DNA of 64,000 nucleotides. It comes from a phage. Location: sequence record PZ168832.1. One strand, 5' to 3'. Shown here in pieces: positions 3,316 to 57,203 of this stretch. The notes under the pieces were generated by a model, which worked only from the letters and a program-made list of their open reading frames with translations, ran no database searches and was not told where the DNA came from. Within the stretch, counting starts at the first letter, position 1. Each line of letters opens with the position of its first letter. The position numbers and the translations under genes are program-made.

Positions 3316-4986
3316 ATGTCAATTGAACATGACAATCTTCCAGAGGATACAGGTGATGAATTTGGTGCAATCTTTGACGAAATTCAAGACGCTGGTGTTT
3401 CAGAAGAAATGCAAGCAGCAGAGCAGCAAGGCACCAGAGCTAAAATAAGCCTTCAGCACAAGGCTGTTGAGAAAGATGCAGAGCGCATGGAATGCTACGG
3501 TGAAGAAGACTTGGTTGAAAGGGCACGTTTGCTCGCCTCACTTCAGGTAATCAAGTTCCCTCACTATAAACCGACGAAAGATGATTTTGTTCTTCAGGCG
3601 GACCGGACGAGTGACATGAACCGTTATGCGGTTTTCGACGCGTTGTTTGATAAGGGAAGCGGCGTTGTTCCATTCCCTCACAAAGATACTTTTCGTGGGC
3701 GCTTAGTCGACCATCGCGGCGAAACATTCACCGACCGGACGTTGGAAGTCACAGAGATAGTTGCCGCTGTCGACGCAGCAGGCCTGTCCAACCCAAACTC
3801 ACGGCAGGTCGCTCAATCCTATAAGGAATGGGCCATGCGTTATCAGCGCGACGACCTGATGGACTTCTTCTACAAGAAGCTGCCTGAATGGGACGGTACT
3901 GCGCGCATTGAGAAATACCTTATCGAGCTATTCCGACCGTTCGATACAGAGTTAAACCGACAAATCGGTGTGTATTTTTGGCTATCGCTCTATAACCGCC
4001 TGACCAACCCTGGCTGTCAAGCGCCAATATCCATTGCGCTCATCGGCGGCCAGAACGCAGGGAAGAGTTATTTTAGTAAGCTGCTTTGCGAAGCTATTAT
4101 GAACGACCGCCACGCAACACCGATTCCGTTGAACTTGGCCGCGCAAAACTTCAACCCGTTCTTGCGAGCTATTACGGGTCGCTCAATTATCGCGAACGTT
4201 GGCGAGATGACAGGCTTTAAAAAGGCCGACATCGAAAACATGAAAGCATTCCTGACTAAGACGGAAGATGACCTGGACTTCAAATTTGAAGACACGCAGG
4301 TTAAACCACGCCAGTGGATTGCGATCATGGACGGCAACGAATACGCAGGCATGCAGCGTGACGACACGGGCAACCGTCGTGTTTACCCTATCTTTGTTGG
4401 CCAACTTGCTGACAAGGACGGGCAACCGAACTGGTCTAAAGACTTCCAAGCTGACCTTTCCACTTTGAAAGAAGATGTTTGGCAGCTTATGGCTGAGTGC
4501 GCTGCGTGGATGGAGAAGCACGGCGAAGCAGGTTACAACGCCTTTGTTGGTGAAACGTCTCGTATGCTTACTGAGTTCAGCAAGAATGAAATGGAACGCG
4601 CTCGCGGCGTTATCCGTGATGAGATGGTCGACAACGACCTTGTTGAAGTCGTCATTACTGCGCCTTATGACCGACATCACAGCGGACGCTGGCACATCAC
4701 CAGTGGTGCAATCGCTATGGGATTCAGAGCTAAGTGCGGCAAGTCGCCTTTCTCACGTACCCTTGCGCCGCACATGTCGAAACTTGGATTTGAGCCTGCA
4801 ACCTATCGCAACCAGCGTGGTTACTTTACGCCGCTGATTAAGAATGAAGCAGGGGAATACATTTCTGACTTGATGACTATCTTGGCGTATCTTATCCGCG
4901 ACGAGTCTGACCCTGAAGATATTGAATTCTTGAAGAAGGTTATTGAACGCAAACGTTCTTTAGGAAGAGATAAGGATGAATTCTGA
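3316..4986 (+). CDS. VirE-like P-loop NTPase (primase-associated helicase-like replication protein)
   Basis: 556 aa; Walker A IALIGGQNAGKSYFSKLL; resembles primase C-terminal/VirE-family NTPases; lies downstream of the AEP primase. Confidence 0.55.
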   Translation: MSIEHDNLPEDTGDEFGAIFDEIQDAGVSEEMQAAEQQGTRAKISLQHKAVEKDAERMECYGEEDLVERARLLASLQVIKFPHYKPTKDDFVLQADRTSDMNRYAVFDALFDKGSGVVPFPHKDTFRGRLVDHRGETFTDRTLEVTEIVAAVDAAGLSNPNSRQVAQSYKEWAMRYQRDDLMDFFYKKLPEWDGTARIEKYLIELFRPFDTELNRQIGVYFWLSLYNRLTNPGCQAPISIALIGGQNAGKSYFSKLLCEAIMNDRHATPIPLNLAAQNFNPFLRAITGRSIIANVGEMTGFKKADIENMKAFLTKTEDDLDFKFEDTQVKPRQWIAIMDGNEYAGMQRDDTGNRRVYPIFVGQLADKDGQPNWSKDFQADLSTLKEDVWQLMAECAAWMEKHGEAGYNAFVGETSRMLTEFSKNEMERARGVIRDEMVDNDLVEVVITAPYDRHHSGRWHITSGAIAMGFRAKCGKSPFSRTLAPHMSKLGFEPATYRNQRGYFTPLIKNEAGEYISDLMTILAYLIRDESDPEDIEFLKKVIERKRSLGRDKDEF

Positions 4987-11898: not shown

Positions 11899-12347
11899 TG
11901 GGTAAAAAGCTTATCGCCGCTGGTTGGGCCATCCCGAAGTGGGCTCATCGTGCGCACTACTTTGATGAAGGAGAAGTGCAAAGCCTTTGTGGTCGCGCAA
12001 CTTATTTCGGTGATGAGCGCGTCAGCGGCGATTACATCGACTCGCTTTTAGGCAAAGGTGATTGCAAGAAATGTCAGGATATATTAAGAGATATTCTTAC
12101 GCAAAGAGGATTGCTTGAGCTTGATGAATCGGAGGAAGTAATTGAACTTAAGCTTGAAGCGAATTACCTTATTTATACGTTCAAGAACTATTACGCAACT
12201 AATATGCGCTCAAAAATGAGCGAGGAAGTAATAGAAAAGGTGTTCACCTACAATCCGCTAAGGATGAATAAAACTAAATTGAAGAAGTTTAATATAATGT
12301 TAAGGAAAGAATTTAAAAGGCTTGGAGTGAAGAATTTTATATTTTAA
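11895..12347 (+). CDS. hypothetical protein (150 aa), last gene of early operon
   Basis: ORF track; followed by a terminator. Confidence 0.4.
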   Translation: MMGKKLIAAGWAIPKWAHRAHYFDEGEVQSLCGRATYFGDERVSGDYIDSLLGKGDCKKCQDILRDILTQRGLLELDESEEVIELKLEANYLIYTFKNYYATNMRSKMSEEVIEKVFTYNPLRMNKTKLKKFNIMLRKEFKRLGVKNFIF

Positions 12348-12363
12348 TAGTGATTAATGTTAA

Positions 12364-12388
12364 GAGGGCCGATTGGCCCTTTTTGTTT
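12364..12388 (+). terminator. rho-independent terminator ending the early operon
   Basis: agggccgattggccc stem followed by ttttt. Confidence 0.5.
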
Positions 12389-12880
12389 GCCTGTGGAATG
12401 TGAGGCTTTTGTGGTTATTTACGATTCAAGGCTGTAATTTAAGAGAGCGAAAATATTATAATAATTTATCAAGATTATTGCATATTGTGGCAATCAACGT
12501 TTATACGTATTTATGACAGTTTAATCCACTAAATAATACGGATAGAACAGTGAGGAAAATACAGCGGTGTATTTTAGTGTAAATATTGAATCAAAAATAA
12601 ATAATTATGGTGCTATTATATACGCAGATTGTTTGTAATTTATAGGATATTTTATCGTGGAGTATTGGCTAACGGTGCGTTAGCCGTGGGTCTTGGTGCT
12701 TGTGGTGTTGATGCTCAGAATTTTAATAATGTTTTAGTTTTAGTAATCGTAGTCAATGATGATACGTATAAGAAAATGAGAGTCACCCCTTCACAGGATA
12801 TTGTACCGTGGCCCTGTGGTGCGCCGCGCCTGGGATTGCTGGTATACACTGGTGCTATTTTGCCGCGAAGGCAGTCATTC

Positions 12881-13210
12881 ATACGTATCATGACGTATCA
12901 TTGGGCTATTGATTTATAAGGAAAAATACGCTGATACGGATGATACGGGTGCAAACATAATATATATAGAATTCCAGAAAATTAATTAACTCCATTTTGA
13001 ATTAATTTAAATTAATTTTTTTCTACATCCTCATACTTATACTAAACTTATATTTATACGTATCATCCGTAAGATATAAGTAAAAACAAAGACTTGCGGC
13101 AATACGGATGATACGTCATGATACGCTTCAACCAGCCATCTGCGGCTAAGTCATTGATTTGCATAACAAGCGGCGAAAGGGATGGATTTCTTTTATACGT
13201 ATCAAACAGT
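12881..13210. repeat. iteron region A: CCGTATCAT / ATGATACGG copies in alternating orientation around an AT-rich core
   Basis: acgtatcatgacgtatcat (~12883), gatacggatgatacgg (~12933), AT-rich core with gaattc and attaatttaaattaattttttt, cgtatcatccgta (~13059), atacggatgatacgtcatgatacg (~13102), tatacgtatca (~13196). Confidence 0.6.
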
Positions 13211-13339
13211 ACACCACGCACCACGGTCCGCAATCCACGCAGCATTATGATTTGTGTACATTTATAGCCATAATGAACATCAATCTGCACTTGAATATAA
13301 TGTCCATCCATTGTATAATTCACACTATTAATTTGCACT

Positions 13340-13828
13340 ATGGGATTTTGCACTATGAGTCAAGACTATGTAGCGATGCCTGAAGACTTTGAAGACCCGC
13401 GATTTGCAGAGCACAATCAGGCTTTATTCGATGAGTTCATTGACCTTGTTATTCAGGGCCATGACATGCGCGCAGCTTTTGCACTAGTATTTGGAATGGA
13501 AGTTGCAACGGATAACTACACTGGACAGCGAATCCTTTGCGCGCAACGCAACCCATACTACAAAATGCGCTTCAAAAAGCGTATGGAAGAGATGCCACTC
13601 AAGGATTTGTGGAGCGTAAAAGGTGCAATTCACAATTTGGTTAAGCTTGTGCGTGATCCAGAAGTCGCGGCGTCAGCCAAGCTTAATGCTATTCGCGAAC
13701 TGAATATCATCTACGGCATCACGATGATTGATGAAAACGGCAATAGTAAAATGGGCCGTTCCATGGACGATTTCTACAAGGATTTTGGAGAGGCAGCCAA
13801 AGAAGGCGAGCAATTCTCCCGCCACTAG
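13340..13828 (+). CDS. possible terminase small subunit (alternatively a DNA-binding regulator)
   Basis: 162 aa; FIDLVIQGHDMRAAFALVFG...AQRNPYYKMRF resembles the helix-turn-helix region of small terminase families (from memory); flanked by the 12-mer array. Confidence 0.4.
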   Translation: MGFCTMSQDYVAMPEDFEDPRFAEHNQALFDEFIDLVIQGHDMRAAFALVFGMEVATDNYTGQRILCAQRNPYYKMRFKKRMEEMPLKDLWSVKGAIHNLVKLVRDPEVAASAKLNAIRELNIIYGITMIDENGNSKMGRSMDDFYKDFGEAAKEGEQFSRH

Positions 13829-14256: not shown

Positions 14257-14883
14257 TTAGATAATCTGGAAGGTGTAGGACTTGTTGCCGAACTCGAAGT
14301 TCAAGCGCCCAGCTTCCTTAAGCTTCATGCGGAAGCGAATATGTTTGCTATCCGGTAAGCCCAGCGCGGCGAACGCTACGCGGACCGATTTGAACTCTCC
14401 TACACCCTCGACCATAACGCCGTTACGGGTAAGACGCTTTTGCGCCACTTCCTTATTATCCCAACTTTTTGCAATGCCTTCGCTATTCGAACGGCGATGG
14501 GAAGGAGTTCCGTTTTGCACTACGCAATTTGCACTATCGTTTAAACCGCTCTTAACGAAGGCTTCATACTCTTCGTCGGTCATCGCGTCGAGTTCTTCCT
14601 GCGTCGGCTCGGCCTTTTTAACGACCGCACGCGCCTTATGCGTTTTTACATCGCTGGACACTTCCTCGCGCGGCTTCGCGTCGGGGATGGGCGATTCGTT
14701 GGACGGCTCATCGAGCGCGTTTAAGGACTCGATTAACGCGATTACGCGAGTCTCGGCGGTCCGGCGGTCCGAAAACTTCTTAATCGGTTTTGAGCCGGAA
14801 TTTGCATTATAGAATGCAACGAGGTCGGCGGTCTTAGTTGCGATAACGTCGCCGCTAGTCGAGAAGCGATTTAAGCTAACCAT
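14257..14883 (-). CDS. hypothetical protein (208 aa) with acidic central segment, island gene
   Basis: ORF track; EPTQEELDAMTDEEYEAF; unusually NCG-codon-rich. Confidence 0.45.
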   Translation of the reverse strand: MVSLNRFSTSGDVIATKTADLVAFYNANSGSKPIKKFSDRRTAETRVIALIESLNALDEPSNESPIPDAKPREEVSSDVKTHKARAVVKKAEPTQEELDAMTDEEYEAFVKSGLNDSANCVVQNGTPSHRRSNSEGIAKSWDNKEVAQKRLTRNGVMVEGVGEFKSVRVAFAALGLPDSKHIRFRMKLKEAGRLNFEFGNKSYTFQII

Positions 14884-14963: not shown

Positions 14964-15248
14964 TTACGCTTCGACGAGGGAGAAGGTTTCAAATTCTTCT
15001 TCTCCCATAACGAGTAAAATATTCCCGATTTCGACCGCTTCGAAGAAGTATCCGTTAACGTTTACTTCGAATGATTCGCGGTCCGATTCCGGTAACGCCG
15101 CGTAAAGTTTAAAAGCCTCGGCGACCGTTACCCCACCCGCTTCAATAGTTTGATCTACGTTCGCGGCGTAGACTTCGGATAAATTTTGTTTTACGCCGTA
15201 GTTCTCGACGATAGCGTTACGGATAGAAGAAACGTTAAGAATAGCCAT
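14964..15248 (-). CDS. small acidic protein, paralogue family member 1 (94 aa)
   Basis: About 16 D/E versus 4 K/R; SEVYAANVDQTIE and FEVNVNGYFFEAVEIGN align with YLSNVDATIE and YRVTINGFVYTITEIGG of 15880..16170. Confidence 0.5.
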   Translation of the reverse strand: MAILNVSSIRNAIVENYGVKQNLSEVYAANVDQTIEAGGVTVAEAFKLYAALPESDRESFEVNVNGYFFEAVEIGNILLVMGEEEFETFSLVEA

Positions 15249-15316
15249 TTTAAACTCCTAGTTGGGATAGGCGTTAACGACCTATTCGTTAACTCATCCC
15301 GTCCCGATATGAGTAC

Positions 15317-15879: not shown

Positions 15880-16170
15880 ATGATTACTTTATCCGCTATC
15901 CGCGCCGCTCGCGTCGAAACTTCCGAAAACTCTAATGTATTTGGCGAAACCTTAGAGAGCGTTTATCTCTCTAACGTAGACGCGACTATCGAGTCTATTT
16001 ATGAACCGATCAACTTCCTCGACCTTTACAAGTATCGCGACGAGGACGTAGCATCCTACCGCGTAACGATTAACGGCTTCGTCTATACGATTACCGAAAT
16101 CGGCGGCGAATATCTCGCGATCCCGCAACTCGGCGGAGAAGTGACTTATTTTAAAATCGTAAGCCTTTAA
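15880..16170 (+). CDS. small acidic protein, paralogue family member 2 (96 aa)
   Basis: Alignable to 14964..15248 product; about 15 D/E versus 6 K/R. Confidence 0.5.
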   Translation: MITLSAIRAARVETSENSNVFGETLESVYLSNVDATIESIYEPINFLDLYKYRDEDVASYRVTINGFVYTITEIGGEYLAIPQLGGEVTYFKIVSL

Positions 16171-16181
16171 GGAGAAGAAAA

Positions 16182-16391
16182 ATGACTAATATGAATAACT
16201 CTCTTAACGCGCGCGCCCATCGTACCGCCGTCATCGATATGTTCCGCGAACTTAAGGAATTATGCGATAATATGAACGCGATGTTATCCATCGGCGGCTG
16301 GGGATACGAAGAAGAGGTTAAATACGCGGTTATGCGTCGTAAGCGCGATAACGTCCTGGGACAAATTAAACGCGCCGGATTATTCCTTTAA
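16182..16391 (+). CDS. hypothetical small protein (69 aa)
   Basis: ORF track; aggag RBS. Confidence 0.4.
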   Translation: MTNMNNSLNARAHRTAVIDMFRELKELCDNMNAMLSIGGWGYEEEVKYAVMRRKRDNVLGQIKRAGLFL

Positions 16392-16561: not shown

Positions 16562-16823
16562 TCGCGTAAGTCCTTGTTTTATATAGACACCTATATCGGA
16601 CCGTTAGGGCGGGTCGCGTAAGTCGTTGTTTTATAAAGGCGCAAAACTTTCCCTTCGTTCCGAACTAAAACGAGGAATATGCCGACCCTTCGTCCGAAAA
16701 TAGTACGCATGCGAAATTACATGCATCTAGAATAATCCCCACCGATATTATCCTACACGCAATCATTCGCTTTCGAATCATTATGCTTCATATTGTTATG
16801 CGTCAAATCATTCGCTTTCGAAT
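16562..16823. repeat. direct repeats in an ORF-poor region: tcgcgtaagtc(c/g)ttgttttata x2 and atcattcgctttcgaat x2
   Basis: Copies at about 16562/16614 and 16762/16807; the second contains palindrome attcg-cttt-cgaat. Confidence 0.4.
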
Positions 16824-17095
16824 TGTAACGCTGGAAACTGTAACGGCTATTGATTATTGCGTTCGTGTGGTTTTTATGGCATGGGTCTTTTGGTGCGTTT
16901 TGGTACTTGATGGAATTTGCGGTACACTAATCAAAATACGACACATTTGGTCCACTAACTTTTCAAAGAAAAAGTCCCAGACAGTACCGTACTATTTTGT
17001 ACCCACAGTAAATTTGCAGTACACTCCTGCGCGGCAGGCAAAATAAAGGGCCGCCACAGCGACCCACGATTCACGGTTAAATCAACAAGCACCCA

Positions 17096-18594: not shown

Positions 18595-20952
18595 TTATTT
18601 CGCTGCTTTCAGCGCGGCTATCTCTGCCTTGAGTTCATCTATCTGATCCATCAATGCAAGAATAGCCTCGTGGTGCAGTGCTGCTGCTACACCTGGTGTG
18701 TTGACAGATTTTATGTTATCCAACGTCGAACCGTCGCGCAGAGTAACAGGCGATGACTGTGTTTCAGATACTGCTTCAGGAAAGTCTTTCTCTACATCCT
18801 GGGCGATGAAGCCAAAACCGACGGAGCCATTAGTTTCCAGAGTCCATGCCACGCCTCTGATGTTGCGCATCTTGACAAGTGGATCAGTGATCCGCTCAAT
18901 GTTACTTTTAATACGTTCATCAGATATACTCCGCCACTCCTGACACCTTGCTATTCCATCGGAGCCAAAAAGATAAGAGGCCGCGCCGCCTGTCCCGCTG
19001 TAAACGTTCAATTGCGCGCGGTCCAGCGTGGTCGTGCTACTCCTTATGCCTCCGAGAATCCAGCTTCCACTGTACCAGTCACCGCTGATTGAGTTTACAA
19101 AATTTCCTTCTGGAACGTTGGCATAGTTTTGAATCCTTATGGCGTTGTTTTCTGCAGCAGCAACGCCTACTGAATTAACTGGGGATGCAACAAGGTCTTT
19201 AGACCGGATATATGCATCAACAACTATTGTCCCATCAGGGCGCAGAGTTCCAATCTGGGATGTGGAATTCGGCAACACCAATTTGCCATCTTGGTTAAAT
19301 GCCCACTCTTGCACCCCATTAGATATCACAGCACCTTGTTCAGACGTCAATCCATCAATTTTGCCGTATGCCTGCAAGAATGCTTGATACGCGATGTTCG
19401 TGCCAATCTTATATTCAGATTTTACACTACCGCCTCTGACAAGCATTCCGGCTGCAGGTTTTACTGCGTCGCCGTTAATCACACTCCAAGAAGTATTCGC
19501 GGCAACAAATCCACCCGATGCACGAATCACCCAAACGCCAACAAAGTTGCGACCCATGATTTCGTCAGTTGCCGCTCCATAAATCGGGCTTGATCTGGAT
19601 GCATCAATATTTATTGTATTGAGACGCCCCTCTACTGCCCCGCTTCCAACAGGTATGGTGTCGCCAGCGCCTTGGGGGTACAAATCGTTGTTTGTGTAAA
19701 AAGCACCTCGGACGGCTGTGCCAAAGATTTGCGCATAAGTGCCTGCCGATACACCAGCGGCTGAGCCTGTGATGTTTGGTGCAGCAGATTCAAATATTTG
19801 ACCGTTCGCAGTGGAGTTGCCGCCATCACCGCGCCCGTAAAGCGCCCGTACAGAGCCTGTCTGAACACCGTTAAGGTCTGGGACACGGAATGTCGTTGTG
19901 CCGTTACCTGAAGAATATTTTGCACGTTTGAACTTATCCGCAAGCCAGTCGGCATCTGCGATGGGCGAAAGCATTTGCGCATACGCCCAAAGTTCAGGCC
20001 AGTCAGCACGGTTTAGCAATTGCCCGTCTGCAACGACTTCGTATGGCTGAATATATGATCTACTATTGCGAAGATGGAAATCGCCAACACCATAGTTCAT
20101 GACGCCGTTCATACTTGGACCAACGGTGCCTGTGTTTACTAAGTTTTCAACCCAACGCTTAGTCGCGGCATCATAATCATTTACAGGGTCGCCAGCGAGC
20201 GGCGTTGATCCTTGTGGACGGATGTTTAGCCACGCCTGAGCATTATCTGCAGAGCCTGTGCCGCCCATTGAAGTTGGAACGATGCTCTGATCAGCAACAG
20301 GGCCGAATCCAAAAGCAGACTTCATCCCTTGGATGGTAGTTTGCCCTGTGCCGCCGTTGGCGACTGGGATGACAGATTTACTGTTGTATAATTGCGCCCA
20401 TTGACTCCAAACCCCATTTACCGCGTTGTAAGTCCTTTGGTATGTAACATTGTTGTAATATGTTGAGTATCTTTGGACGCAACTTTCTATTGATGGTCCA
20501 GTTTTTAGGACTTCAAGGACTCCTGCTTGTGAAACTGGGTAATTAAGAACAGTCTGAGCATCTGCATTGAAGTCTTGGAAATAATTTCCAAACCAAGAGC
20601 CTGTCAGAAAGTTGAGATTTATCCCAGAAGGAAGTTTGCCATAATTTCTTACAACCCCTGTTAAGGTCGCAGCAGTGTTACGAATAGAAAGCATGTCACC
20701 AGCAGACCATGCACGCGCTGCCGTACCTTCTTGTGCGCGCTGCACGGTCAGGACGTCTCCAACCACGGCTGTCACTGTGACAATTTCGAATTGGCGGCCT
20801 GTTGCAGCGTCGACGATTGTCGCCACTACACGCTCGTTCGCGCCCAAGGTCGGAAATCCCGACCCTGAGCGAATTGTGATTGTGGTGTCTGAAGTCGTCG
20901 TTGGTTGAGCCAGCGCGACCTCAAAGTTGTTTTTGAATATTAGCCTTGGCAT
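18595..20952 (-). CDS. tail spike/fibre with C-terminal intramolecular chaperone (peptidase S74-like) domain
   Basis: 785 aa; fibre-like Gly/Ser/Thr/Asn-rich repeats, YDAATKRWVEN motif; C-terminal SDERIKSNIERI...GFIAQDVEKDFPEAV followed by a coiled-coil tail, the hallmark of self-cleaving chaperone domains. Confidence 0.8.
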   Translation of the reverse strand: MPRLIFKNNFEVALAQPTTTSDTTITIRSGSGFPTLGANERVVATIVDAATGRQFEIVTVTAVVGDVLTVQRAQEGTAARAWSAGDMLSIRNTAATLTGVVRNYGKLPSGINLNFLTGSWFGNYFQDFNADAQTVLNYPVSQAGVLEVLKTGPSIESCVQRYSTYYNNVTYQRTYNAVNGVWSQWAQLYNSKSVIPVANGGTGQTTIQGMKSAFGFGPVADQSIVPTSMGGTGSADNAQAWLNIRPQGSTPLAGDPVNDYDAATKRWVENLVNTGTVGPSMNGVMNYGVGDFHLRNSRSYIQPYEVVADGQLLNRADWPELWAYAQMLSPIADADWLADKFKRAKYSSGNGTTTFRVPDLNGVQTGSVRALYGRGDGGNSTANGQIFESAAPNITGSAAGVSAGTYAQIFGTAVRGAFYTNNDLYPQGAGDTIPVGSGAVEGRLNTINIDASRSSPIYGAATDEIMGRNFVGVWVIRASGGFVAANTSWSVINGDAVKPAAGMLVRGGSVKSEYKIGTNIAYQAFLQAYGKIDGLTSEQGAVISNGVQEWAFNQDGKLVLPNSTSQIGTLRPDGTIVVDAYIRSKDLVASPVNSVGVAAAENNAIRIQNYANVPEGNFVNSISGDWYSGSWILGGIRSSTTTLDRAQLNVYSGTGGAASYLFGSDGIARCQEWRSISDERIKSNIERITDPLVKMRNIRGVAWTLETNGSVGFGFIAQDVEKDFPEAVSETQSSPVTLRDGSTLDNIKSVNTPGVAAALHHEAILALMDQIDELKAEIAALKAAK

Positions 20953-22626: not shown

Positions 22627-24087
22627 ATGAATAAAATATTAACACATAATTGGAAAGTCATGTACCAGTTGAATCCTGCTTTAAGAGAAGTCTGGAAGAC
22701 GAAAGCGCGATACAAAGTAATATACGGCGGTCGTGCATCTTCCAAATCGCATGATGCCGCTGGTTTTGCTATTTATTTGGCGGCAAACTTTAAATTAAAA
22801 TTCCTTTGCGTTCGACAATTCCAGAACAAGATTTCTGAATCAGTATATACGCTATTAAAAGACAAAATAGAAATTTCTGATTTCAAAGATGAGTTCAACT
22901 TGTTAAAGAACTCCATTGAACACAAAAGAACAAAATCTGAATTCTTATTTTACGGTATCGCACGCAACGTTGACGAAATCAAATCAACAGAAGGCGTTGA
23001 TGTTCTTTGGCTTGAAGAAGCGCACGCACTTACTGAAGAGCAGTGGGACATCATTGAGCCGACAATTCGTAAGGAAGGGTCCGAAATATGGATCATATTT
23101 AACCCTGATGAAGAGGCTGATTTCGTCTACCAGAACTTTGTTATGCGACCGCCTAAAAATGCCATCGTTAAGAAGATTAACTGGCAGGACAATCCATTCT
23201 TGTCGCAAACAATGCTGGACGTTATCGCTGGCATGTATGAGCGCGACCCGAAAAAGGCAGAACACGTTTATGGCGGAGTACCGAAGACAGGCGGCGACAA
23301 GTCGGTCATCAACCGTGCATTCGTCAAGGCCGCACTAAACCTCCACAAACACCCTACGTTGGGATGGAGCTTGTCAGGGTCTAACCGTATAGGCTTTGAC
23401 GTGGCAGACGACGGCGACGACTTAAACGCCACAGCATTTGTCACGGGCAACGTATTGCGCGGCATAAAGACATGGGAAGGTCTGGAAGATGAATTGCTTA
23501 AGTCCGCAAGCGGAGTTTGGAAAGATGCATTAACATTCGGCGCATCAATTACCTATGACGCCATCGGTGTTGGTGCATTTGCTGGTTCAAAATTTGATGA
23601 GCTTAATGAGTATGCAATCCATGAAAATCCAACATTCCCAAGAATCGAATTTAATGCGTTCAACGCGCAAGGTGCTGTTGATGATCCTGATGACGTCTTC
23701 CTTGAGTTACCACACGTTGAAATACTCAATAAAGACCATTTCGCAAACATAAAAGCGCAAAAATGGACTGAGATTGCCGAACGATTCAGGAAGACATATG
23801 AGTATGCAACAGGGCAGGCCGTATACCCGACTGATGAGCTGATTTCCATCGACACAGACGGCATTCCAGAACTTGGGATTCCTGCTTGGTCTGCGGAAGA
23901 AATTGAGACATTTCTTTTTGAGATGTCAGCGCCGCGCAAAGACACGTCTGTGCTTGGTAAGTTTAAAGTTGAATCGAAAAAGGATATGGCAAAGCGTGGA
24001 GTCAAATCGCCTAACAAAGCGGACGCAGCAATCATGGCGTTGATGAAACCAATTGTTGCAGCATCCGGCTTCTTCTCTAACCTTTAA
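22627..24087 (+). CDS. terminase large subunit
   Basis: 486 aa; Walker A-like YGGRASSKS near N-terminus; ATPase-then-nuclease layout; true start may be the second in-frame ATG (MYQLNPA) because TATAAT abuts the first ATG. Confidence 0.8.
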   Translation: MNKILTHNWKVMYQLNPALREVWKTKARYKVIYGGRASSKSHDAAGFAIYLAANFKLKFLCVRQFQNKISESVYTLLKDKIEISDFKDEFNLLKNSIEHKRTKSEFLFYGIARNVDEIKSTEGVDVLWLEEAHALTEEQWDIIEPTIRKEGSEIWIIFNPDEEADFVYQNFVMRPPKNAIVKKINWQDNPFLSQTMLDVIAGMYERDPKKAEHVYGGVPKTGGDKSVINRAFVKAALNLHKHPTLGWSLSGSNRIGFDVADDGDDLNATAFVTGNVLRGIKTWEGLEDELLKSASGVWKDALTFGASITYDAIGVGAFAGSKFDELNEYAIHENPTFPRIEFNAFNAQGAVDDPDDVFLELPHVEILNKDHFANIKAQKWTEIAERFRKTYEYATGQAVYPTDELISIDTDGIPELGIPAWSAEEIETFLFEMSAPRKDTSVLGKFKVESKKDMAKRGVKSPNKADAAIMALMKPIVAASGFFSNL

Positions 24088-24743: not shown

Positions 24744-24872
24744 TTCAATCTCCTTTCGTTTGGTTAACTAAAATATAACTCAAAATGATACAAAAGCAAA
24801 ATATTTTATGAACTATTTATGATTACTATACATATCATTTGCTTACAAACACATGAATATTTATAATATAGA

Positions 24873-27281
24873 TTGATTCCCTTTCACTGTCAGGTGGCGT
24901 TAACAATGAAAATTCTTGGCATAAAACTCTGGGAGAAGACGCAACCAGAAGCCGAACCAGCGGAGATGCCGCCAGGCGACCCATTGGCACCGTTTGAACG
25001 CCTTGAAAGGCGCGGCAGCGGTCAACGCTGGGAAAAGACTGAAAGCAATCGACCGACCTTTAAAACGGTTGATGACTTCCCTTTATATGAGCCTGATATT
25101 AATGGCGATGGTGTTGCAATCATAAAAGGTCGTTCAGTCGATTCCGCAACAGTATCCAAAAAGGTTATGGATAATGCCTTAAAGAACATCAGTTCAGAAG
25201 GGCAAGTCAACCCATACACAGTACCTATTCAACTTCAAAACTGGTATTTGTCACAGTCATTTATCGGCTATCAAGCTTGTGCCATCATCGCACAGCATTG
25301 GCTGGTGAACAAGGCTTGCTCTATGGTAGGCCGTGATGCAGTGCGTAAAGGTTGGGAAGTAAAATCAAGCTCTGAATCAGAATTGTCTGTGCAGGCCAGC
25401 GAACGCTTAAAGCAAATTGATAAAGAATTTAATATCAAAGAGCACTTAGTTGAAGCCGAACGATTCAAAAATATTTTTGGTATCCGCGTCATCATATTTG
25501 ATGTGCGTAGCGATGATCCAGAATACTACAGCAAACCTTTTAACATTGATGGTGTGACAAAGGGGTCTTATAAGGGAATCATTCAGGTTGACCCTTATTG
25601 GATGATGCCATTTTTGACGTCTGAAAACACCGCCGACCCTGCATCACAGCACTTCTATGATCCAGAATACTGGGTGATCAGCGGACAACGTTATCATCGA
25701 AGCCACCTGATCATTTTGCGAAACGATGAGCCAGCTGATATTCTCAAGCCGACTTATATTTACGGCGGCATCCCTCTGACTCAGCAGATTTATGAACGCA
25801 TCTATGCCGCTGAACGTACCGCTAACGAAGCGCCATTGCTGGCGATGTCCAAGCGTACAACCACGCTGCGGACCGACGTTGACAAGGCGATTGCCAATGA
25901 GCGGTCTTTTGCTGAACGTCTGATGATGTGGATTAAGTACCGCGACAACTATGCAGTCAAAGTGCTTGGTCAAAAAGAAGAGATGGACCAGTTCGACATC
26001 AACTTGTCAGACTTCGACAGCATCATCATGAACCAGTACCAGCTGGTGGCCGCAATCGCAAAAGTTCCGTCGACCAAACTTCTTGGGACTTCGCCAAAAG
26101 GCTTTAACGCCACTGGTGAATTTGAGATGGTCAGCTATCACGAAGAGTTGGAAACGTGCCAGCAGCATGACCTGACAAAAATTCTCGACCGCCATTACAA
26201 AATCCTTCTCAAATCAGAAGGGGTGGAAGTCGACGTTAAGGTTGCATGGGAACCAGTTGGCTCACTTACTGCTACTCAACTTGCAGAAATCAACGACAAG
26301 CGAGCTAACACTGGCAAAACTCTCATTGATGCTGGCGTCATTTCTCCTGATGAAGAGCGCGACCGCATCAAAGACGACAAAAACAGCGGCTACAACCGTC
26401 TGCCGGAAGACGCAGCAGAAGAAACCCCAGGGATGTCTCCAGAGAATATGGCATTGCTTGGCAAGTCTGCTGGTGAAGTCCTGCAAGGTAAGGCCGATAT
26501 TGAACAGGCGAAAGTTGATGTCGTTAAGATGGGCGGCCAGTTCTATAGCGAAACAGGTATTATGCCAGAGGGTGCCGCGCGTGGTGAGTTGGCGGAAAAC
26601 CCTGACAAAGCGCCTGTCGAAATCAACATGGACGATACCGATGATGAATCAAGCCATCAGGTTGATGTCCTAACGCAGTTGAAAGAAGGGCTGGAGGGTA
26701 TTGCGGATTACTACCTGAAAGAAGGTCAGGATGTGGATTTTGACCCTCAAAAAGATTCACGGTCGGTGCAACCGTCTACCCTTCCAAGCGTTAAAGGACA
26801 CGTCGTCAACTTACGCCACAACGTGGGTAAAATGGACGCAGCATCATTACCTAAGATGAAGTTGCACGGAATGATTCTTGGCATTGAGAATCCGCGAAAC
26901 AGCATTCGTAGAGGAAACAGCCTTGACGGTGAATGGGCCGTGAAGATGCCGCACCACTACGGATTCATCAAGGGCACCAAGGGCGCAGACGGTGATGAAG
27001 TCGACTGCTTTGTGGGTCCAAATCTGAAGTCGCCGAAAGTCTTTATCGTGAACCAAAACGATAACTACTCTGGCGAGTTTGATGAACACAAGTGTATGCT
27101 TGGATTCGATTCAGCAGAAGAAGCGAAAGAAGCTTATCAAGCATCATTTGGTAACGGTTGGAACGGATTCGACTCAATCCACGAATTAGATGTGAACTCA
27201 TTCAAGGAGTGGTTGAAGGGTGATTGCTCTCAAGCATACGGAGCACTCAATAATCCTACTAATTCACCGAAGCAAGGTTGA
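24873..27281 (+). CDS. portal protein with long C-terminal extension
   Basis: About 800 aa between terL and the Mu-F-like head protein; likely start is ATG at 24906 (MKILGIK), since the track start is a non-ATG codon. Confidence 0.7.
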   Translation: MIPFHCQVALTMKILGIKLWEKTQPEAEPAEMPPGDPLAPFERLERRGSGQRWEKTESNRPTFKTVDDFPLYEPDINGDGVAIIKGRSVDSATVSKKVMDNALKNISSEGQVNPYTVPIQLQNWYLSQSFIGYQACAIIAQHWLVNKACSMVGRDAVRKGWEVKSSSESELSVQASERLKQIDKEFNIKEHLVEAERFKNIFGIRVIIFDVRSDDPEYYSKPFNIDGVTKGSYKGIIQVDPYWMMPFLTSENTADPASQHFYDPEYWVISGQRYHRSHLIILRNDEPADILKPTYIYGGIPLTQQIYERIYAAERTANEAPLLAMSKRTTTLRTDVDKAIANERSFAERLMMWIKYRDNYAVKVLGQKEEMDQFDINLSDFDSIIMNQYQLVAAIAKVPSTKLLGTSPKGFNATGEFEMVSYHEELETCQQHDLTKILDRHYKILLKSEGVEVDVKVAWEPVGSLTATQLAEINDKRANTGKTLIDAGVISPDEERDRIKDDKNSGYNRLPEDAAEETPGMSPENMALLGKSAGEVLQGKADIEQAKVDVVKMGGQFYSETGIMPEGAARGELAENPDKAPVEINMDDTDDESSHQVDVLTQLKEGLEGIADYYLKEGQDVDFDPQKDSRSVQPSTLPSVKGHVVNLRHNVGKMDAASLPKMKLHGMILGIENPRNSIRRGNSLDGEWAVKMPHHYGFIKGTKGADGDEVDCFVGPNLKSPKVFIVNQNDNYSGEFDEHKCMLGFDSAEEAKEAYQASFGNGWNGFDSIHELDVNSFKEWLKGDCSQAYGALNNPTNSPKQG

Positions 27282-27282
27282 T

Positions 27283-28134
27283 ATGGCTTTTAAAGCTTCG
27301 AAAAAACGTGAACGCCGCTCACCCGATAGAATCGGACGCGGCAGTCCGATAATCCCATCAAACGCTATTGCGATGGCCTACCGTCGTGAGATGAAAGGTC
27401 TTTGCTATGCGATGATTGATGACTATCAGGCAGGCATTTCAGAATGGCTTGACAAGAAGCAGGTGCAGAAGTTTTTTGCGCAAGACTCTGCTGATTCGAC
27501 ATTCCAGACCCTTATGAAACGGCTGCAACTGAAATGGGCAAAGGCGTTTGCACGTGTTGGGTCGAAGATTGCCGCTGATTTTATCAAATCGGTCGAAAAG
27601 GGTGCCACTTCTGCTACATTCGCAAGCCTTAAGTCCGCAGGCATAGAAGCGCCAAAGGCCACATATAACAAATTCGTTGAGAACACTCTTAGAACAAGCG
27701 AGAAGTTTAACACGACTCTAGTGACTAAGGTCGGCGAGGATATTCACAACAGGGTGTACGAAGCGGTGATGCTTTCGCTGACTTCGCCAGACCCAGCACA
27801 GCAAGGCGCATCCGGCATTCAGGCGGCATTAAGAAATGTCAAACACTTCTCTGCAAAACGCGTAGACCTTATCGCCAAAGACCAAACGAGCAAACTTTAT
27901 TGCGTATTAAGTGATGAAAGGATGCGACAGAATGGCGTGGAGGAATTTGAGTGGGCGCATTCAGGAGCAGGCAAAGAGCCGCGAATATCACATGAGCACG
28001 TCGACGGCATGAGATTCAAGCTTGATGACAAACGCTTATGGGAAGTAGGTGGAGAACTTAAGTTCAAAAAGGGTGACATCGGTCCTCCTGGATGGGCAAT
28101 ACACTGCAAGTGCAGAAAAATACCAATTATCTGA
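27283..28134 (+). CDS. head morphogenesis protein (Mu gpF / SPP1 gp7-like)
   Basis: Track ORF 27220..28134 trimmed to MAFKASKK; C-terminal ...PPGWAIHCKCRKIPII resembles the conserved H-x-C-x-C end of this family. Confidence 0.65.
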   Translation: MAFKASKKRERRSPDRIGRGSPIIPSNAIAMAYRREMKGLCYAMIDDYQAGISEWLDKKQVQKFFAQDSADSTFQTLMKRLQLKWAKAFARVGSKIAADFIKSVEKGATSATFASLKSAGIEAPKATYNKFVENTLRTSEKFNTTLVTKVGEDIHNRVYEAVMLSLTSPDPAQQGASGIQAALRNVKHFSAKRVDLIAKDQTSKLYCVLSDERMRQNGVEEFEWAHSGAGKEPRISHEHVDGMRFKLDDKRLWEVGGELKFKKGDIGPPGWAIHCKCRKIPII

Positions 28135-28386
28135 ATTAAGATAGTTGTAAATAAGCGCAATTTAAACTGTGCAATTATTAATTTGATATGAACTAAAGAG
28201 GAAGTTATGCAAAAGATTATTCAGTCACGTTATGTTAAAGTGCGAAATATTAATTGCAACTCTTTGCTTTCTTGGAAATGGGCTGTTTATGACTCAATGC
28301 TGATTGGCGTTTTAGTTGCTGGAGTGCTTTTTAATATTCACTGAATCGCCTGGCAATGGATTGCCGCAGGATTTCACGCGTATAAT

Positions 28387-28655
28387 GACGTATCATCCGT
28401 ATCAAGTAAGTAGTTGTTTTCAAAAGAATCTTACGGATGATACGGATGATACGCGTTGCCGCGATACTTTATAGGAATTCAAATAAATTAATTTAAAATT
28501 ATATATCTAATTTAATTTTATTTTTTTATAAACTCTTATATATGAAAAGTATCCGTATCATCCGTATCATCCGTAGCACACCAGTGATAGCGCGGCTTAT
28601 ACACCGATACGGATAAAAATACGCCTCATTTTATCCGTATCATCCGTATCACACT
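28387..28655. repeat. iteron region B: diverged copy of region A
   Basis: gacgtatcatccgtatca (~28388), ttacggatgatacggatgatacg (~28431), gaattc plus attaatttaaaatt...attttattttttt core, ccgtatcatccgtatcatccgta (~28550), ccgatacggat (~28605), tccgtatcatccgtatca (~28633). Confidence 0.6.
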
Positions 28656-28760
28656 AATTAAGGCGCGGCTATATCGGTTGTTATACATATTCAAACCATA
28701 ATTATTGTTTGCCTAAGTTTTTTTCATTAGATATAATACACAATACTTATTTGAGGGTGG

Positions 28761-30179
28761 ATGCGAATGCAAACGGCACGCGAAATTGACAAAAATGGAT
28801 TCTTGACGATTGTGGGTTGTCCCATTTCGTCATTTGGCATTTTTGATTATTCTGCAGGTCAGGTTGGACTTGATGGTGATCCGAATCGCATCGTAAAAGT
28901 TTATCGCCCAGAGTCAGCGGTGAAAGACCCCGAAGCGATAGATTCATTCAAAAATATCCCTTTCATCGACAATCACGAAATGCTTTCTGGATTCGAAGGT
29001 GATGAGGATAACACAGCACCCGAAGAGTATGGAGTTGATGGCGTTCTGACTGGCAATGTTTATTATGACAAGCCATGGATGCGCGGCGACCTTAAAGTGT
29101 TTAGCCGTCGTCTGAAGAAGGCCATTGATTCTGGAAAGGTTGACTTGTCTTTGGGCTATGACTGTGAATTCATCATACAGTCTGGAGAGTTTGACGGGCA
29201 GCCGTATGAAGTGGTGCAGACAACTCTTCGCGGCAACCACATTGCTCTCGTGGACGTTGGTCGAGTACCAGGTGCACGGGTGCTGGATGGTCGTTGCTTT
29301 GACCATCTTTGTTTGACGACTGTAACACCATCCAACGAGGATTTAGACATGCCAAAACCGTTAAAAGGTAAAGCGCGTGATAATGCTGTTGAACAGCTGA
29401 AATCACTGATCCCTGCGCTCGAACAATTTCTGAATGAAGAGAGTACTGAAGCTGCTCATCAGGACGAAGTTGAAGTGAAAGCAGAAGAGAAGGACTCAAC
29501 CGAAAATCGTGAAGAAGTAATGGTTGATCCAGAAGTCAAGGCAGAAGCAGAAGAAACCCCAGAAGGTGAAGAGAAGTTTGAAGTTGAAACTGAATCTAAC
29601 GCTGGCGGCGAACTTCCGCAATTGATCAGCCAAATCGAAGCACTTATTGCAAAACTGAAAGGTGGCGCGGTAGGTGATGAAGAAGAAGTTGAAGCCGAAG
29701 TCAAAGACGAAGAAGTTGAAGTCAAGGCTGAAGATGTATCACCTTGCGACAAAGCTGAAGATGTGGTTAGCGGCCTGCAAAACAGCAACGTAAAGGGGGC
29801 TTCGGTCGAAAAAGATGACAAACCGACAAAAGCGGCGAAAGCGTCGCCAGGTCCAGCAAAAGGGGAACACTCAATGGCATCTGATTCAGCAGTTGCTGCT
29901 TTCTACGCTGATTCTGCTCGTAAGAATAGCCTCTACCAGCGCCTGTCTAAAGTTGTTGGTGCCTTTGATCATGCAACTATGGACTCCAAGTCCGTAGCGA
30001 AATATGGCGCTAAAAAGTTAGGCTTGAAGTGCGTTGATGGTGCTGAGTTTGACGTGGTGGATAATTATCTGCGTGGCGTTGAACACGGTCAAAAACAGCG
30101 TGTAGTCGCAAAACAAAAGGCCGCTGCGGATTCTGCAGCAACTGACGAAGCATTTGAAGCTTGGTTGAAAGGGGAATAA
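28761..30179 (+). CDS. probable prohead protease/scaffolding fusion protein
   Basis: 472 aa; globular N-terminal domain followed by Glu/Ala/Lys-rich low-complexity repeats (EEVEVKAEE...); sits between portal/head protein and capsid gene. Confidence 0.5.
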   Translation: MRMQTAREIDKNGFLTIVGCPISSFGIFDYSAGQVGLDGDPNRIVKVYRPESAVKDPEAIDSFKNIPFIDNHEMLSGFEGDEDNTAPEEYGVDGVLTGNVYYDKPWMRGDLKVFSRRLKKAIDSGKVDLSLGYDCEFIIQSGEFDGQPYEVVQTTLRGNHIALVDVGRVPGARVLDGRCFDHLCLTTVTPSNEDLDMPKPLKGKARDNAVEQLKSLIPALEQFLNEESTEAAHQDEVEVKAEEKDSTENREEVMVDPEVKAEAEETPEGEEKFEVETESNAGGELPQLISQIEALIAKLKGGAVGDEEEVEAEVKDEEVEVKAEDVSPCDKAEDVVSGLQNSNVKGASVEKDDKPTKAAKASPGPAKGEHSMASDSAVAAFYADSARKNSLYQRLSKVVGAFDHATMDSKSVAKYGAKKLGLKCVDGAEFDVVDNYLRGVEHGQKQRVVAKQKAAADSAATDEAFEAWLKGE

Positions 30180-56784: not shown

Positions 56785-57203
56785 GACAATTCCTCTAAAT
56801 ACTTGATGATGTGATGAATAGTTCCCTTCACGATTATCTCACGTTGAACGTCTGCAGTATTATAACGCTTTAATTCAATAGAAGGGTGGACTAAATAAAA
56901 CATCTTCTCAGAATCAACCTTAAGCAAAACGAATGATGGGTATCGCCAATCATTCCACGAAGAAAGGAAGCTGCACTGTCCTTTCTCAAATGCATTTCTG
57001 AAAGGTGCAGTGGTTGCCCTTGCAGGCCACGATTCAAAGAACTTCATTTCAAGCCAAAAGCCGCGCCCTTTCCGGTTGGTGCCGATTACGTCCGGCACGC
57101 CATCACCAGTCATTGACTCGATTCGTTGAAGCTTCAATACCGATTCTGAATGCTTCTTCAAAGGCACGAATATGTATTTCTGCTCACGGTTATTTGTTGC
57201 CAT
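56781..57203 (-). CDS. VRR-NUC-type PD-(D/E)xK nuclease
   Basis: 140 aa; GVPDVIG ... WLEMKF pattern; directly downstream of and overlapping the SNF2 helicase gene. Confidence 0.5.
   Translation of the reverse strand: MATNNREQKYIFVPLKKHSESVLKLQRIESMTGDGVPDVIGTNRKGRGFWLEMKFFESWPARATTAPFRNAFEKGQCSFLSSWNDWRYPSFVLLKVDSEKMFYLVHPSIELKRYNTADVQREIIVKGTIHHIIKYLEELS

Follow-up and report, generated by a model that had tools for sequence, protein, structure and literature searches.

Here, we describe a non-coding region, called region A, in a 64,000-nucleotide stretch of phage DNA (record PZ168832.1); this whole stretch is referred to as the window. The window belongs to Wifcevirus, a genus of Escherichia coli and Shigella myoviruses of 66-72 kb that the BASEL paper describes as distant relatives of the Pseudomonas Pbunavirus phages. 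Positions 12300-13400, which are matched by 29 Wifcevirus records, are 97.8% identical to Escherichia phage HermannAdler_Bas98. Region A (12400-13330) separates a plus-strand series of small genes from the gene for the small terminase subunit (TerS). An earlier reading, made from the sequence alone, recognized the layout of a replication origin here and offered a packaging role as an alternative. In our view, region A most probably serves this Wifcevirus as its site of packaging initiation (a probability of about 65%) and is not first of all a replication origin.

Layout of region A

The features of the locus, and of the terminal repeat that extends rightwards from it, are as follows.

Ending at 12347, plus strand: series of small genes
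12365-12386, plus strand: intrinsic-terminator-like hairpin, GGGCC-GATT-GGCCC followed by a T run, which ends the upstream plus-strand operon (read by eye)
12400-12756: variable AT-rich leader with scattered ATACG half-sites only, outside the conserved element
12879-12901, plus strand: L1, two forward units 10 bp apart (TCATACGTATCATGACGTATCAT)
12927-12948, minus strand: L2, reverse units next to the core (TACGCTGATACGGATGATACGG)
12949-13055: AT-rich core, 107 bp, 81% AT, starting near GAATTC and with a run of seven Ts inside
Between 12993 and 12994: cleavage position in the core, with AATTAACTCC to its left and ATTTTGAATT to its right, placed by homology to the ends of relatives
13056-13072, plus strand: R1, forward repeat (ATACGTATCATCCGTAA), inverted partner of L2
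13100-13126, minus strand: R2, reverse units (CAATACGGATGATACGTCATGATACGC), inverted partner of L1
13127-13290: conserved non-coding spacer within the terminal repeat, with an extra repeat unit (13193-13206) and a CCAC-rich tract (13205-13250)
13291-13319, plus strand: sigma-70-type promoter-like site TTGAAT-17-TATAAT before terS, hexamers invariant in an eight-genome alignment
13340-13828, plus strand: terS, the small terminase subunit gene, by its match to 7UXE and the annotation of phage Mansfield
12994-16890, plus strand: direct terminal repeat of the virion DNA, 3897 bp in the window, placed by homology
16761-16865: array of seven 15-bp units (AATCATTCGCTTTCG and variants), all in perfect register, stopping 25 bp short of the repeat's right boundary

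Region A is AT-rich and has no supported gene, in line with the first proposal. Its GC content is 35.3%, compared to 46.2% for the window, and the AT-richest kilobase of the window is 12001-13000, followed by 28001-29000. A PHROG search with the five small open reading frames (ORFs) of region A (30-96 amino acids) found no family, which agrees with the earlier suspicion that the ORF at 12629-12919 is spurious. In ORF 13118-13267, all five substitutions read in the eight-genome alignment are non-synonymous (frame read by eye) and the DNA is nearly invariant, implying constraint on the DNA and not on a protein. The hairpin that was proposed as the terminator of the upstream operon can be read by eye and has an annotated counterpart at the equivalent place in phage WFH, but a consensus terminator scan did not call it.

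The unit that defines the arrays, CGTATCAT, occurs 14 times in the 64 kb, whereas shuffled sequences had 1.87 copies on average and 6 at most. Of the 14, seven fall within 12759-13125 and six within 28389-28643, leaving one elsewhere. The enrichment also holds locally: the most frequent 8-mer of 12750-13210 has seven copies, and none of 1000 dinucleotide-preserving shuffles of that stretch had more than five. The repeats thus pass the shuffle test that had been proposed for them. Could they nevertheless be functionless products of chance or neutral duplication? AT-rich intergenic DNA generally accumulates repeats, and nothing else favors this explanation. It is refuted by the excess of copies (14 versus 1.9 expected), by the placement of 13 of the 14 in two 370-bp patches, by the failure of all 1000 local shuffles to reach the observed copy number, by the persistence of the architecture across five genera, with both copies switching to a new unit together, and by the conservation of the second copy across 29 genomes (see below); we give it next to no credence.

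The arrays are nested around the core. L1 and R2 form a perfect inverted repeat of 18 nucleotides and L2 and R1 one of 13 nucleotides, which places the dyad centre near 13003; units in tandem are spaced 8-10 bp apart, mostly 9. The predicted arrangement of inverted repeats around an AT-rich core of about 110 bp is therefore present, and region A has the three or more repeated short motifs beside an AT-rich unwinding stretch by which iteron-type origins are recognized. Two details of the sequence-only reading needed correction. The exact 14-mer CCGTATCATCCGTA is found in region A only as a reverse copy (12935-12948), the supposed forward copy being a variant (ACGTATCATCCGTA). In addition, the motif-bearing part extends from 12757 to 13206 rather than across the whole of 12400-13330; the stretch 12400-12750 holds ATACG half-sites only, and is replaced in most relatives.

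The probable virion DNA end in region A and the mapped ends of related phages

The evidence for packaging comes from the mapped DNA ends of relatives. Position 1 of the Mansfield record and position 1 of the WFH record both correspond to base 12994 of the window, inside the core, and both genomes start with ATTTTGAATTAATTT. The Mansfield boundary was predicted by PhageTerm from a TruSeq library, and the WFH genome, from a different laboratory, was deposited with both copies of its ~3.7-kb repeat; these two GenBank records already imply this base as the start of Wifcevirus DNA. A metagenome contig from ENA (L037, 3946 bp) also begins at the equivalent of base 12994, and crosses the repeat into unique DNA. 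The motif CAATTAACTCC/ATTTT, with the slash marking the cut, is invariant in eight of eight aligned Wifcevirus genomes and also present in a Logan contig with a TerS identity of only 68%, while the 18-mer at the cut site is unique in the window even when three mismatches are allowed. From the ends of the relatives and the invariant motif, the virion DNA of this phage is also expected to begin within the core, some 10 bp to the left of the dyad centre, and region A would, by homology, contain a genome end. Another record, ECO71P1, starts no more than ~10 bp from the cut but was rejected as a precise end due to an assembly overlap of ~56 bp.

The second boundary can be located in the same way. 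The terminal repeat of Mansfield is 3673 bp long (PhageTerm prediction), and the start and end sequences of WFH equal the Mansfield boundaries. Both repeats end with GGGTCTTT, and the boundary GGGTCTTT/TGGTGCG is found at 16890 in the window. The array of seven 15-bp units just inside this boundary is a candidate for right-end recognition and might direct the fixed cut there; Pantoea phage Kyle has a similar periodic array at its right boundary, made up of AATGATT/AATCATT units. The direct terminal repeats of 3.6-3.9 kb carried by relatives are at odds with a lambda-type cos site, which yields cohesive ends and no terminal redundancy. Likewise, the two fixed boundaries of Wifcevirus and Kyle differ from headful packaging from a pac site, in which the DNA is permuted and only the first cut is specific.

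Several other observations concern the terminal repeat. The sequence GTACACTAATCA is common to the window (16922-16933) and Kyle, a few tens of bp past the right boundary. A 231-bp segment (16161-16391) is missing from three environmental Wifcevirus contigs (L036-L038), an indel within the repeat. Finally, CGTTAAC units, each containing the palindrome GTTAAC, are repeated at 15249-15300 and recur at 15053 and 15543; they sit in a divergent intergenic gap and look like operators between back-to-back promoters.

The gene next to region A is that expected beside a packaging site, its start lying 346 bp to the right of the cut. The product of 13340-13828 matches PDB 7UXE (E = 6e-34), a ten-chain small-terminase structure that a review assigns to phage E217, describing the protein as a decamer and calling TerS essential (PMC9611059). 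The equivalent gene is annotated as small terminase in the Mansfield record, where the annotators noted an HHpred similarity to the TerS of the SPP1-like phage SF6.

Conservation within Wifcevirus differs sharply between the two sides of the cut. To the right, from R1 to about 13250, the sequence is almost invariant: in the eight aligned genomes R2 is unchanged in all, R1 keeps ATCCGTAAG and varies in its first half, and 13127-13290 is nearly invariant. This right half is 90-93% identical in most of the 29 records. To the left, L2 is kept (TACGGATGATACGGAT in eight of eight genomes) and L1 exists in three versions, all repeat-like; farther left the DNA is replaced in most relatives, with 12400-12756 swapped for unrelated sequence in 27 of 29 records. 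An almost invariant right flank beside a far left that turns over fits a role of the right flank like that of cosB or pacR, and would fit a flank that stays bound to terminase on the first-packaged end. The left half (12400-12935) is also a mosaic junction in its own right: it is shared by two of the 29 records, and the rest are unrelated up to the L2 array.

The same kind of element is found 5' of terS in other genera, each time with its own repeat unit. The units are GGTTATT and GGATATT in Kyle, GGTAATTTG in Pbunavirus phages E217 and JG024, AATATCGG and GCCGTTATAT in Salmonella phage PCSE1, TACTTTTCG in Erwinia phage TropicalSun, and TATCCGT in a metagenomic relative. Since closely related hosts (E. 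coli, Pantoea, Salmonella and Erwinia) have phages with different units, the protein that binds the unit must be phage-encoded.

The mapped ends follow the element into these genera. The 3603-bp terminal repeat of Kyle starts at 69566, midway between the proximal inverted units (read by eye). With JG024, 36 of 161 long nanopore reads start at 59,376 +/- 5, and a pac restriction fragment of ~15 kb was seen (PMC10913387); base 59,376 falls in the core of the JG024 element. The Ab27 record, opened at a fixed read termination (PMC4482731), starts 1 bp from the equivalent base. The ends of Kyle, JG024 and Ab27 therefore all lie in the syntenic core, and in three genera (Wifcevirus, Kyle and JG024) the cut is at most about 10 bp from the dyad centre. 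For SCUT-S1, PhageTerm placed the pac site in an AT-rich region (PMC6521218), and headful packaging has been reported for Pbunavirus relatives (PMC10913387, PMC12390725).

Two further features surround the element in these phages. A C-rich, CCAC-type tract lies between the element and the terS promoter in three genera (window 13205-13250, Kyle 69740-69860, E217 58960-59290), and in E217 it spans ~330 bp with a direct tandem duplication of ~40 bp. The tract is not present 3' of the second element described below and is thus specific to region A; it might contribute to packaging specificity. In Pbunavirus, the 'hypothetical protein' genes E217 gp77 (L015 25488-26108) and JG024 gp078 (L028 406-987) span all of the element, including repeats, core, pac cut and C-rich tract, and are probably not real genes.

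Element B, a second copy of the arrangement

The suggestion that 28.1-28.8 kb is related to region A proved correct. The gap between the MuF-like gene and the head protease gene (28346-28760) contains a paralogous element, with the following features.

28384-28652: element B, paralog of region A
28384-28405: L1
28431-28454: L2
28455-28550: core, 83% AT
28551-28576: R1
28603-28613: R2
28633-28652: extra units
28709-28737, plus strand: sigma-70-type promoter-like site TTGCCT-17-TATAAT before the head protease/scaffold gene

Element B aligns with region A over ~260 bp, with an identical order of arrays and core, and includes six copies of CGTATCAT. Its arms are longer than those of region A (a perfect inverted repeat of 22 nucleotides), and the cut-site 18-mer is absent from it. 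It is 95-99% identical in all 29 Wifcevirus records, and 28380-28770 is ~99% invariant in a four-genome Wifcevirus alignment, more conserved than region A. No genome end at element B is reported in the records or literature examined. Left of the cut, Mansfield, WFH, ECML-117 and FEC19 carry a sequence similar to element B of the window, which suggests exchange between the two copies.

Kyle, E217, PCSE1 and TropicalSun have an element B at the same place, each with its own repeat unit and a core like that of its own element A. The two elements co-occur in five genera, and the unit sequence changes in step in both. Xanthomonas phage XcP1, which has terS and the protease gene, has no repeat or AT-rich element 5' of either, the only places searched; A and B therefore appear to be present together or absent together. 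The core of element B in E217 contains TATATAGCCTGGGG (L014 12770-12790). CTGGG is the core of a phage-specific promoter motif reported for Pbunavirus 14-1 by ONT-cappable-seq, and a CTGGG motif search in E217 found no shared extended motif.

What might element B do? The candidates are an origin, a synapsis or titration partner of a packaging protein, and a regulatory site for the head operon. They can be considered against the other genes of the window, mapped by profile searches.

924-2006: RepB-type primase
3316-4986: VapE-like helicase
Between the small terminase and the tail fibre: block of small genes on both strands
14257-14883, minus strand: 208-amino-acid protein (phrog_4730), near terS within the terminal repeat
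18595-20952, minus strand: tail fibre
22627-24087: large terminase
24873-27281: portal
27220-28134: MuF-like head protein
28207-28344: 45-amino-acid ORF 3' of the MuF-like gene
28761-30179: head protease/scaffold, with the remaining structural genes after it
57190-60087, minus strand: Pol III alpha-like polymerase

Rfam and tRNA scans of the whole window gave no matches. The portal is an unusual fusion, its C-terminal domain matching the Pfam inorganic pyrophosphatase family InPase (PF18823, E 3e-46). An AT-rich patch at 24744-24870 was discarded as an ordinary divergent promoter gap in which the repeats are absent, and an apparent enrichment of GCGGCAA/TTGCCGC near the elements was dropped when the motif turned out to be scattered genome-wide.

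Perhaps both elements are replication origins, as first proposed for region A: an initiator, for example the VapE-like helicase with the RepB-like primase, would bind the repeats, melt the core and load bidirectionally. The terminase cut in the core would then be a coincidence of accessible DNA or be coupled to replication, and such a function is compatible with a packaging role. Inverted short repeats around an AT-rich core, two per genome, are the layout of the SaPI origin, P4 ori/crr and SPP1 oriL/oriR. The phage encodes both putative initiator proteins, and element A comes immediately after the VapE-like helicase/primase gene in E217 and PCSE1; in Wifcevirus and Kyle, however, it lies 5-8 kb from the helicase gene. 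The dyad arms would fold as long-range hairpins in single-stranded DNA (-16.9 kcal/mol and z -4.2 for A, -31.9 kcal/mol and z -7.8 for B), and element B shows constraint on its left and right flanks alike, with no terminus known there. The authors of the SCUT-S1 study speculated that the AT-rich pac region could be an origin (PMC6521218), but we found no mapped replication start in the searchable literature. DnaA boxes (TTWTNCACA) are absent from A and B, with 4 in the window against 7.3 expected, although such boxes are not obligatory for phage origins. Cumulative GC skew, which had been proposed as a check, turns at each change of gene orientation; it gives no independent origin signal and cannot test the idea. 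The sole functional datum for region A, the mapped ends in three genera, concerns packaging. The arrangement of repeats and core had been described correctly, while the ends and the adjacent terS point to what had been offered as the alternative; we consider the origin model unlikely, but a rival to be taken seriously, above all for element B.

A different possibility is that the repeats are operators of a phage transcription regulator that times the sigma-70-type promoters at 13291-13319 (terS) and 28709-28737 (the operon for head protease, scaffold and capsid), with the genome end merely nearby. In the genera examined both elements lie 5' of near-consensus promoters of morphogenesis genes, and small dimeric repressors typically bind arrays of short tandem and inverted units with a spacing of 8-10 bp. 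However, a distance of 60-170 bp or more separates the arrays from the promoters downstream of them, and what they enclose is a 100-bp core, not a promoter. The model also leaves unexplained the position of the cut, which in three genera is no more than ~10 bp away from the dyad centre.

The regulator itself is hypothetical. The 208-amino-acid protein beside terS belongs to the core of the family (356 phage records of the family encode it, with 92-100% conservation inside the genus), and its C-terminal segment, EFKSVRAAFAALGLPDSKHIRFRMKLK, resembles a NUMOD-type helix-turn-helix. One homolog weakly matches the NUMOD-like family PF22083 (E 0.039), at 14 bits against a curated cut-off of 27. It is a possible DNA-binding partner of the elements, as judged from sequence. 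A PDB profile search with it gave no matches, and a single-sequence AlphaFold2 model was unusable (pLDDT 40). XcP1 encodes the protein as well, although neither element is found there at the syntenic positions, so the phyletic distribution of the protein does not discriminate whether it binds the repeats. A Pfam search of ten small neighboring proteins for DNA-binding domains yielded nothing credible. On balance, operators of this kind seem a quite improbable explanation, more so than origins.

Proposed packaging initiation and comparison with known systems

How might region A direct packaging? In the pathway that we favor, terminase would cut concatemeric DNA in the core between 12993 and 12994, creating the left virion end and the start of the ~3.9-kb repeat that ends at 16890. 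The inverted CGTATCAT-type arrays on either side would be binding sites of a phage-encoded, lineage-specific DNA-binding protein, the most likely candidate being the ring-shaped TerS encoded just downstream. Protein assemblies on both flanks might bend or wrap the DNA and so set the nuclease of the large terminase near the dyad centre of the easily melted core. Flanking elements place the nuclease in a comparable way at P1 pac, at SPP1 pacL/pacR and at lambda cosB. The conserved right flank (R1, R2 and the 13127-13250 spacer) would remain on the end that enters the capsid first, as cosB does in lambda, and packaging would proceed rightwards through terS. Element B should bind the same protein as region A.

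Several points weigh against this proposal. The termini were mapped in relatives and not in this isolate, and the Pbunavirus literature on termini is contradictory (PMC12390725). Binding of the repeats by TerS is something that we infer, and according to the review E217 TerS showed no appreciable DNA binding in vitro (PMC9611059). The unit spacing of 8-10 bp is shorter than a helical turn, and is not an obvious phasing for DNA wrapped on a ring. In addition, a pure packaging signal would not be expected to have a counterpart that carries the same repeats, has a similar core and is nowhere reported as a terminus.

The last point could be accommodated if A and B were a two-site system, with one phage protein binding both. 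Region A would be cut, and element B would serve as an uncut partner, either for a synapsis-gated start of packaging (the T4 twin-ring idea) or as a replication origin. This arrangement would explain the joint change of the repeat unit, the joint presence or absence of the elements, and the conservation of B beyond that of most genes; we regard it as a tentative idea, with the odds clearly against it. If B were the origin in such a system, replication and packaging would share one recognition protein and co-evolve.

The family to which this phage belongs also takes in the Pbunavirus phages. These are described in the literature as widely used or proposed for therapy against Pseudomonas aeruginosa, and we found no pac recognition element described in the searchable Pbunavirus literature. 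An element with a mapped cut and lineage-specific flanks is a concrete DNA substrate for testing recognition by an E217-type terminase. Both elements must be kept intact when these phages are rebooted synthetically or engineered. The left flank of A, by its variability, indicates a point at which insertion or recombination is tolerated. Moreover, since one type of initiation site occurs in headful Pbunavirus and in Wifcevirus and Kylevirus with their fixed ends (3.6-3.9-kb repeats), the difference between them should lie in termination, and the 15-bp array is a candidate for its basis.

The searchable literature yielded no description of nested inverted arrays, of their lineage-specific turnover, of an initiation site shared by headful and fixed-end relatives, or of a conserved uncut twin. 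Parts of the arrangement have close parallels, however. Phage P1 pac has repeat clusters on both sides of a central cut region and is cut near the middle. Its hexamers (TGATCA/G) are subject to Dam methylation, which controls cutting, whereas the units here (CGTATCAT and ATCCGTA) contain no GATC, so that control of the P1 type does not apply; P1 is also a headful phage, unlike Wifcevirus with its fixed 3.9-kb terminal repeat. To our knowledge, P1 has no uncut twin of pac. In SPP1 (pacL-pacC-pacR, with TerS G1P), the regions contacted by TerS flank the cleavage site and adjoin terS, as proposed here, but SPP1 packages by the headful mechanism and its boxes are not nested perfect inverted repeats. 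We know of no paralogous second site in SPP1.

The concatemer junction of T7 and T3 resembles Wifcevirus in its fixed ends, its direct terminal repeat and the short-repeat arrays beside the boundaries. The T7 repeat, though, is 160 bp long and its processing needs transcription by T7 RNA polymerase, whereas the repeat here is 3.9 kb and carries genes; we found no RNA polymerase gene in this phage. Among origins, SPP1 oriL/oriR, P4 ori/crr and the SaPI origin share with A and B the partly inverted short repeats flanking an AT-rich stretch and the presence of two copies with one binding specificity, and the primase-helicase initiators of SaPI and P4 are of the same broad kind as the VapE-like protein. 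None of these origins is known to us to contain a virion DNA end.

A possible precedent for an uncut element B is the twin-ring pac synapsis of T4, in which TerS is proposed to bind two homologous sites, one in gene 16 and one in gene 19, that lie kilobases from each other (review PMC9611059). That model is unproven and involves no unique pac cut, and the T4 sites lie inside genes and are not repeat arrays. A parallel in overall order is lambda cos (cosQ-cosN-cosB, with Nu1). Lambda has 12-nucleotide cohesive ends and uses IHF, in contrast to the long direct terminal repeat of Wifcevirus, whose right end forms at a different sequence 3.9 kb away. In both, nevertheless, the cut site is followed by a terminase-binding region (here a proposed one) and then by the small-terminase gene, the cut region is dyad-symmetric, and the binding side is, or in Wifcevirus would be, packaged first.

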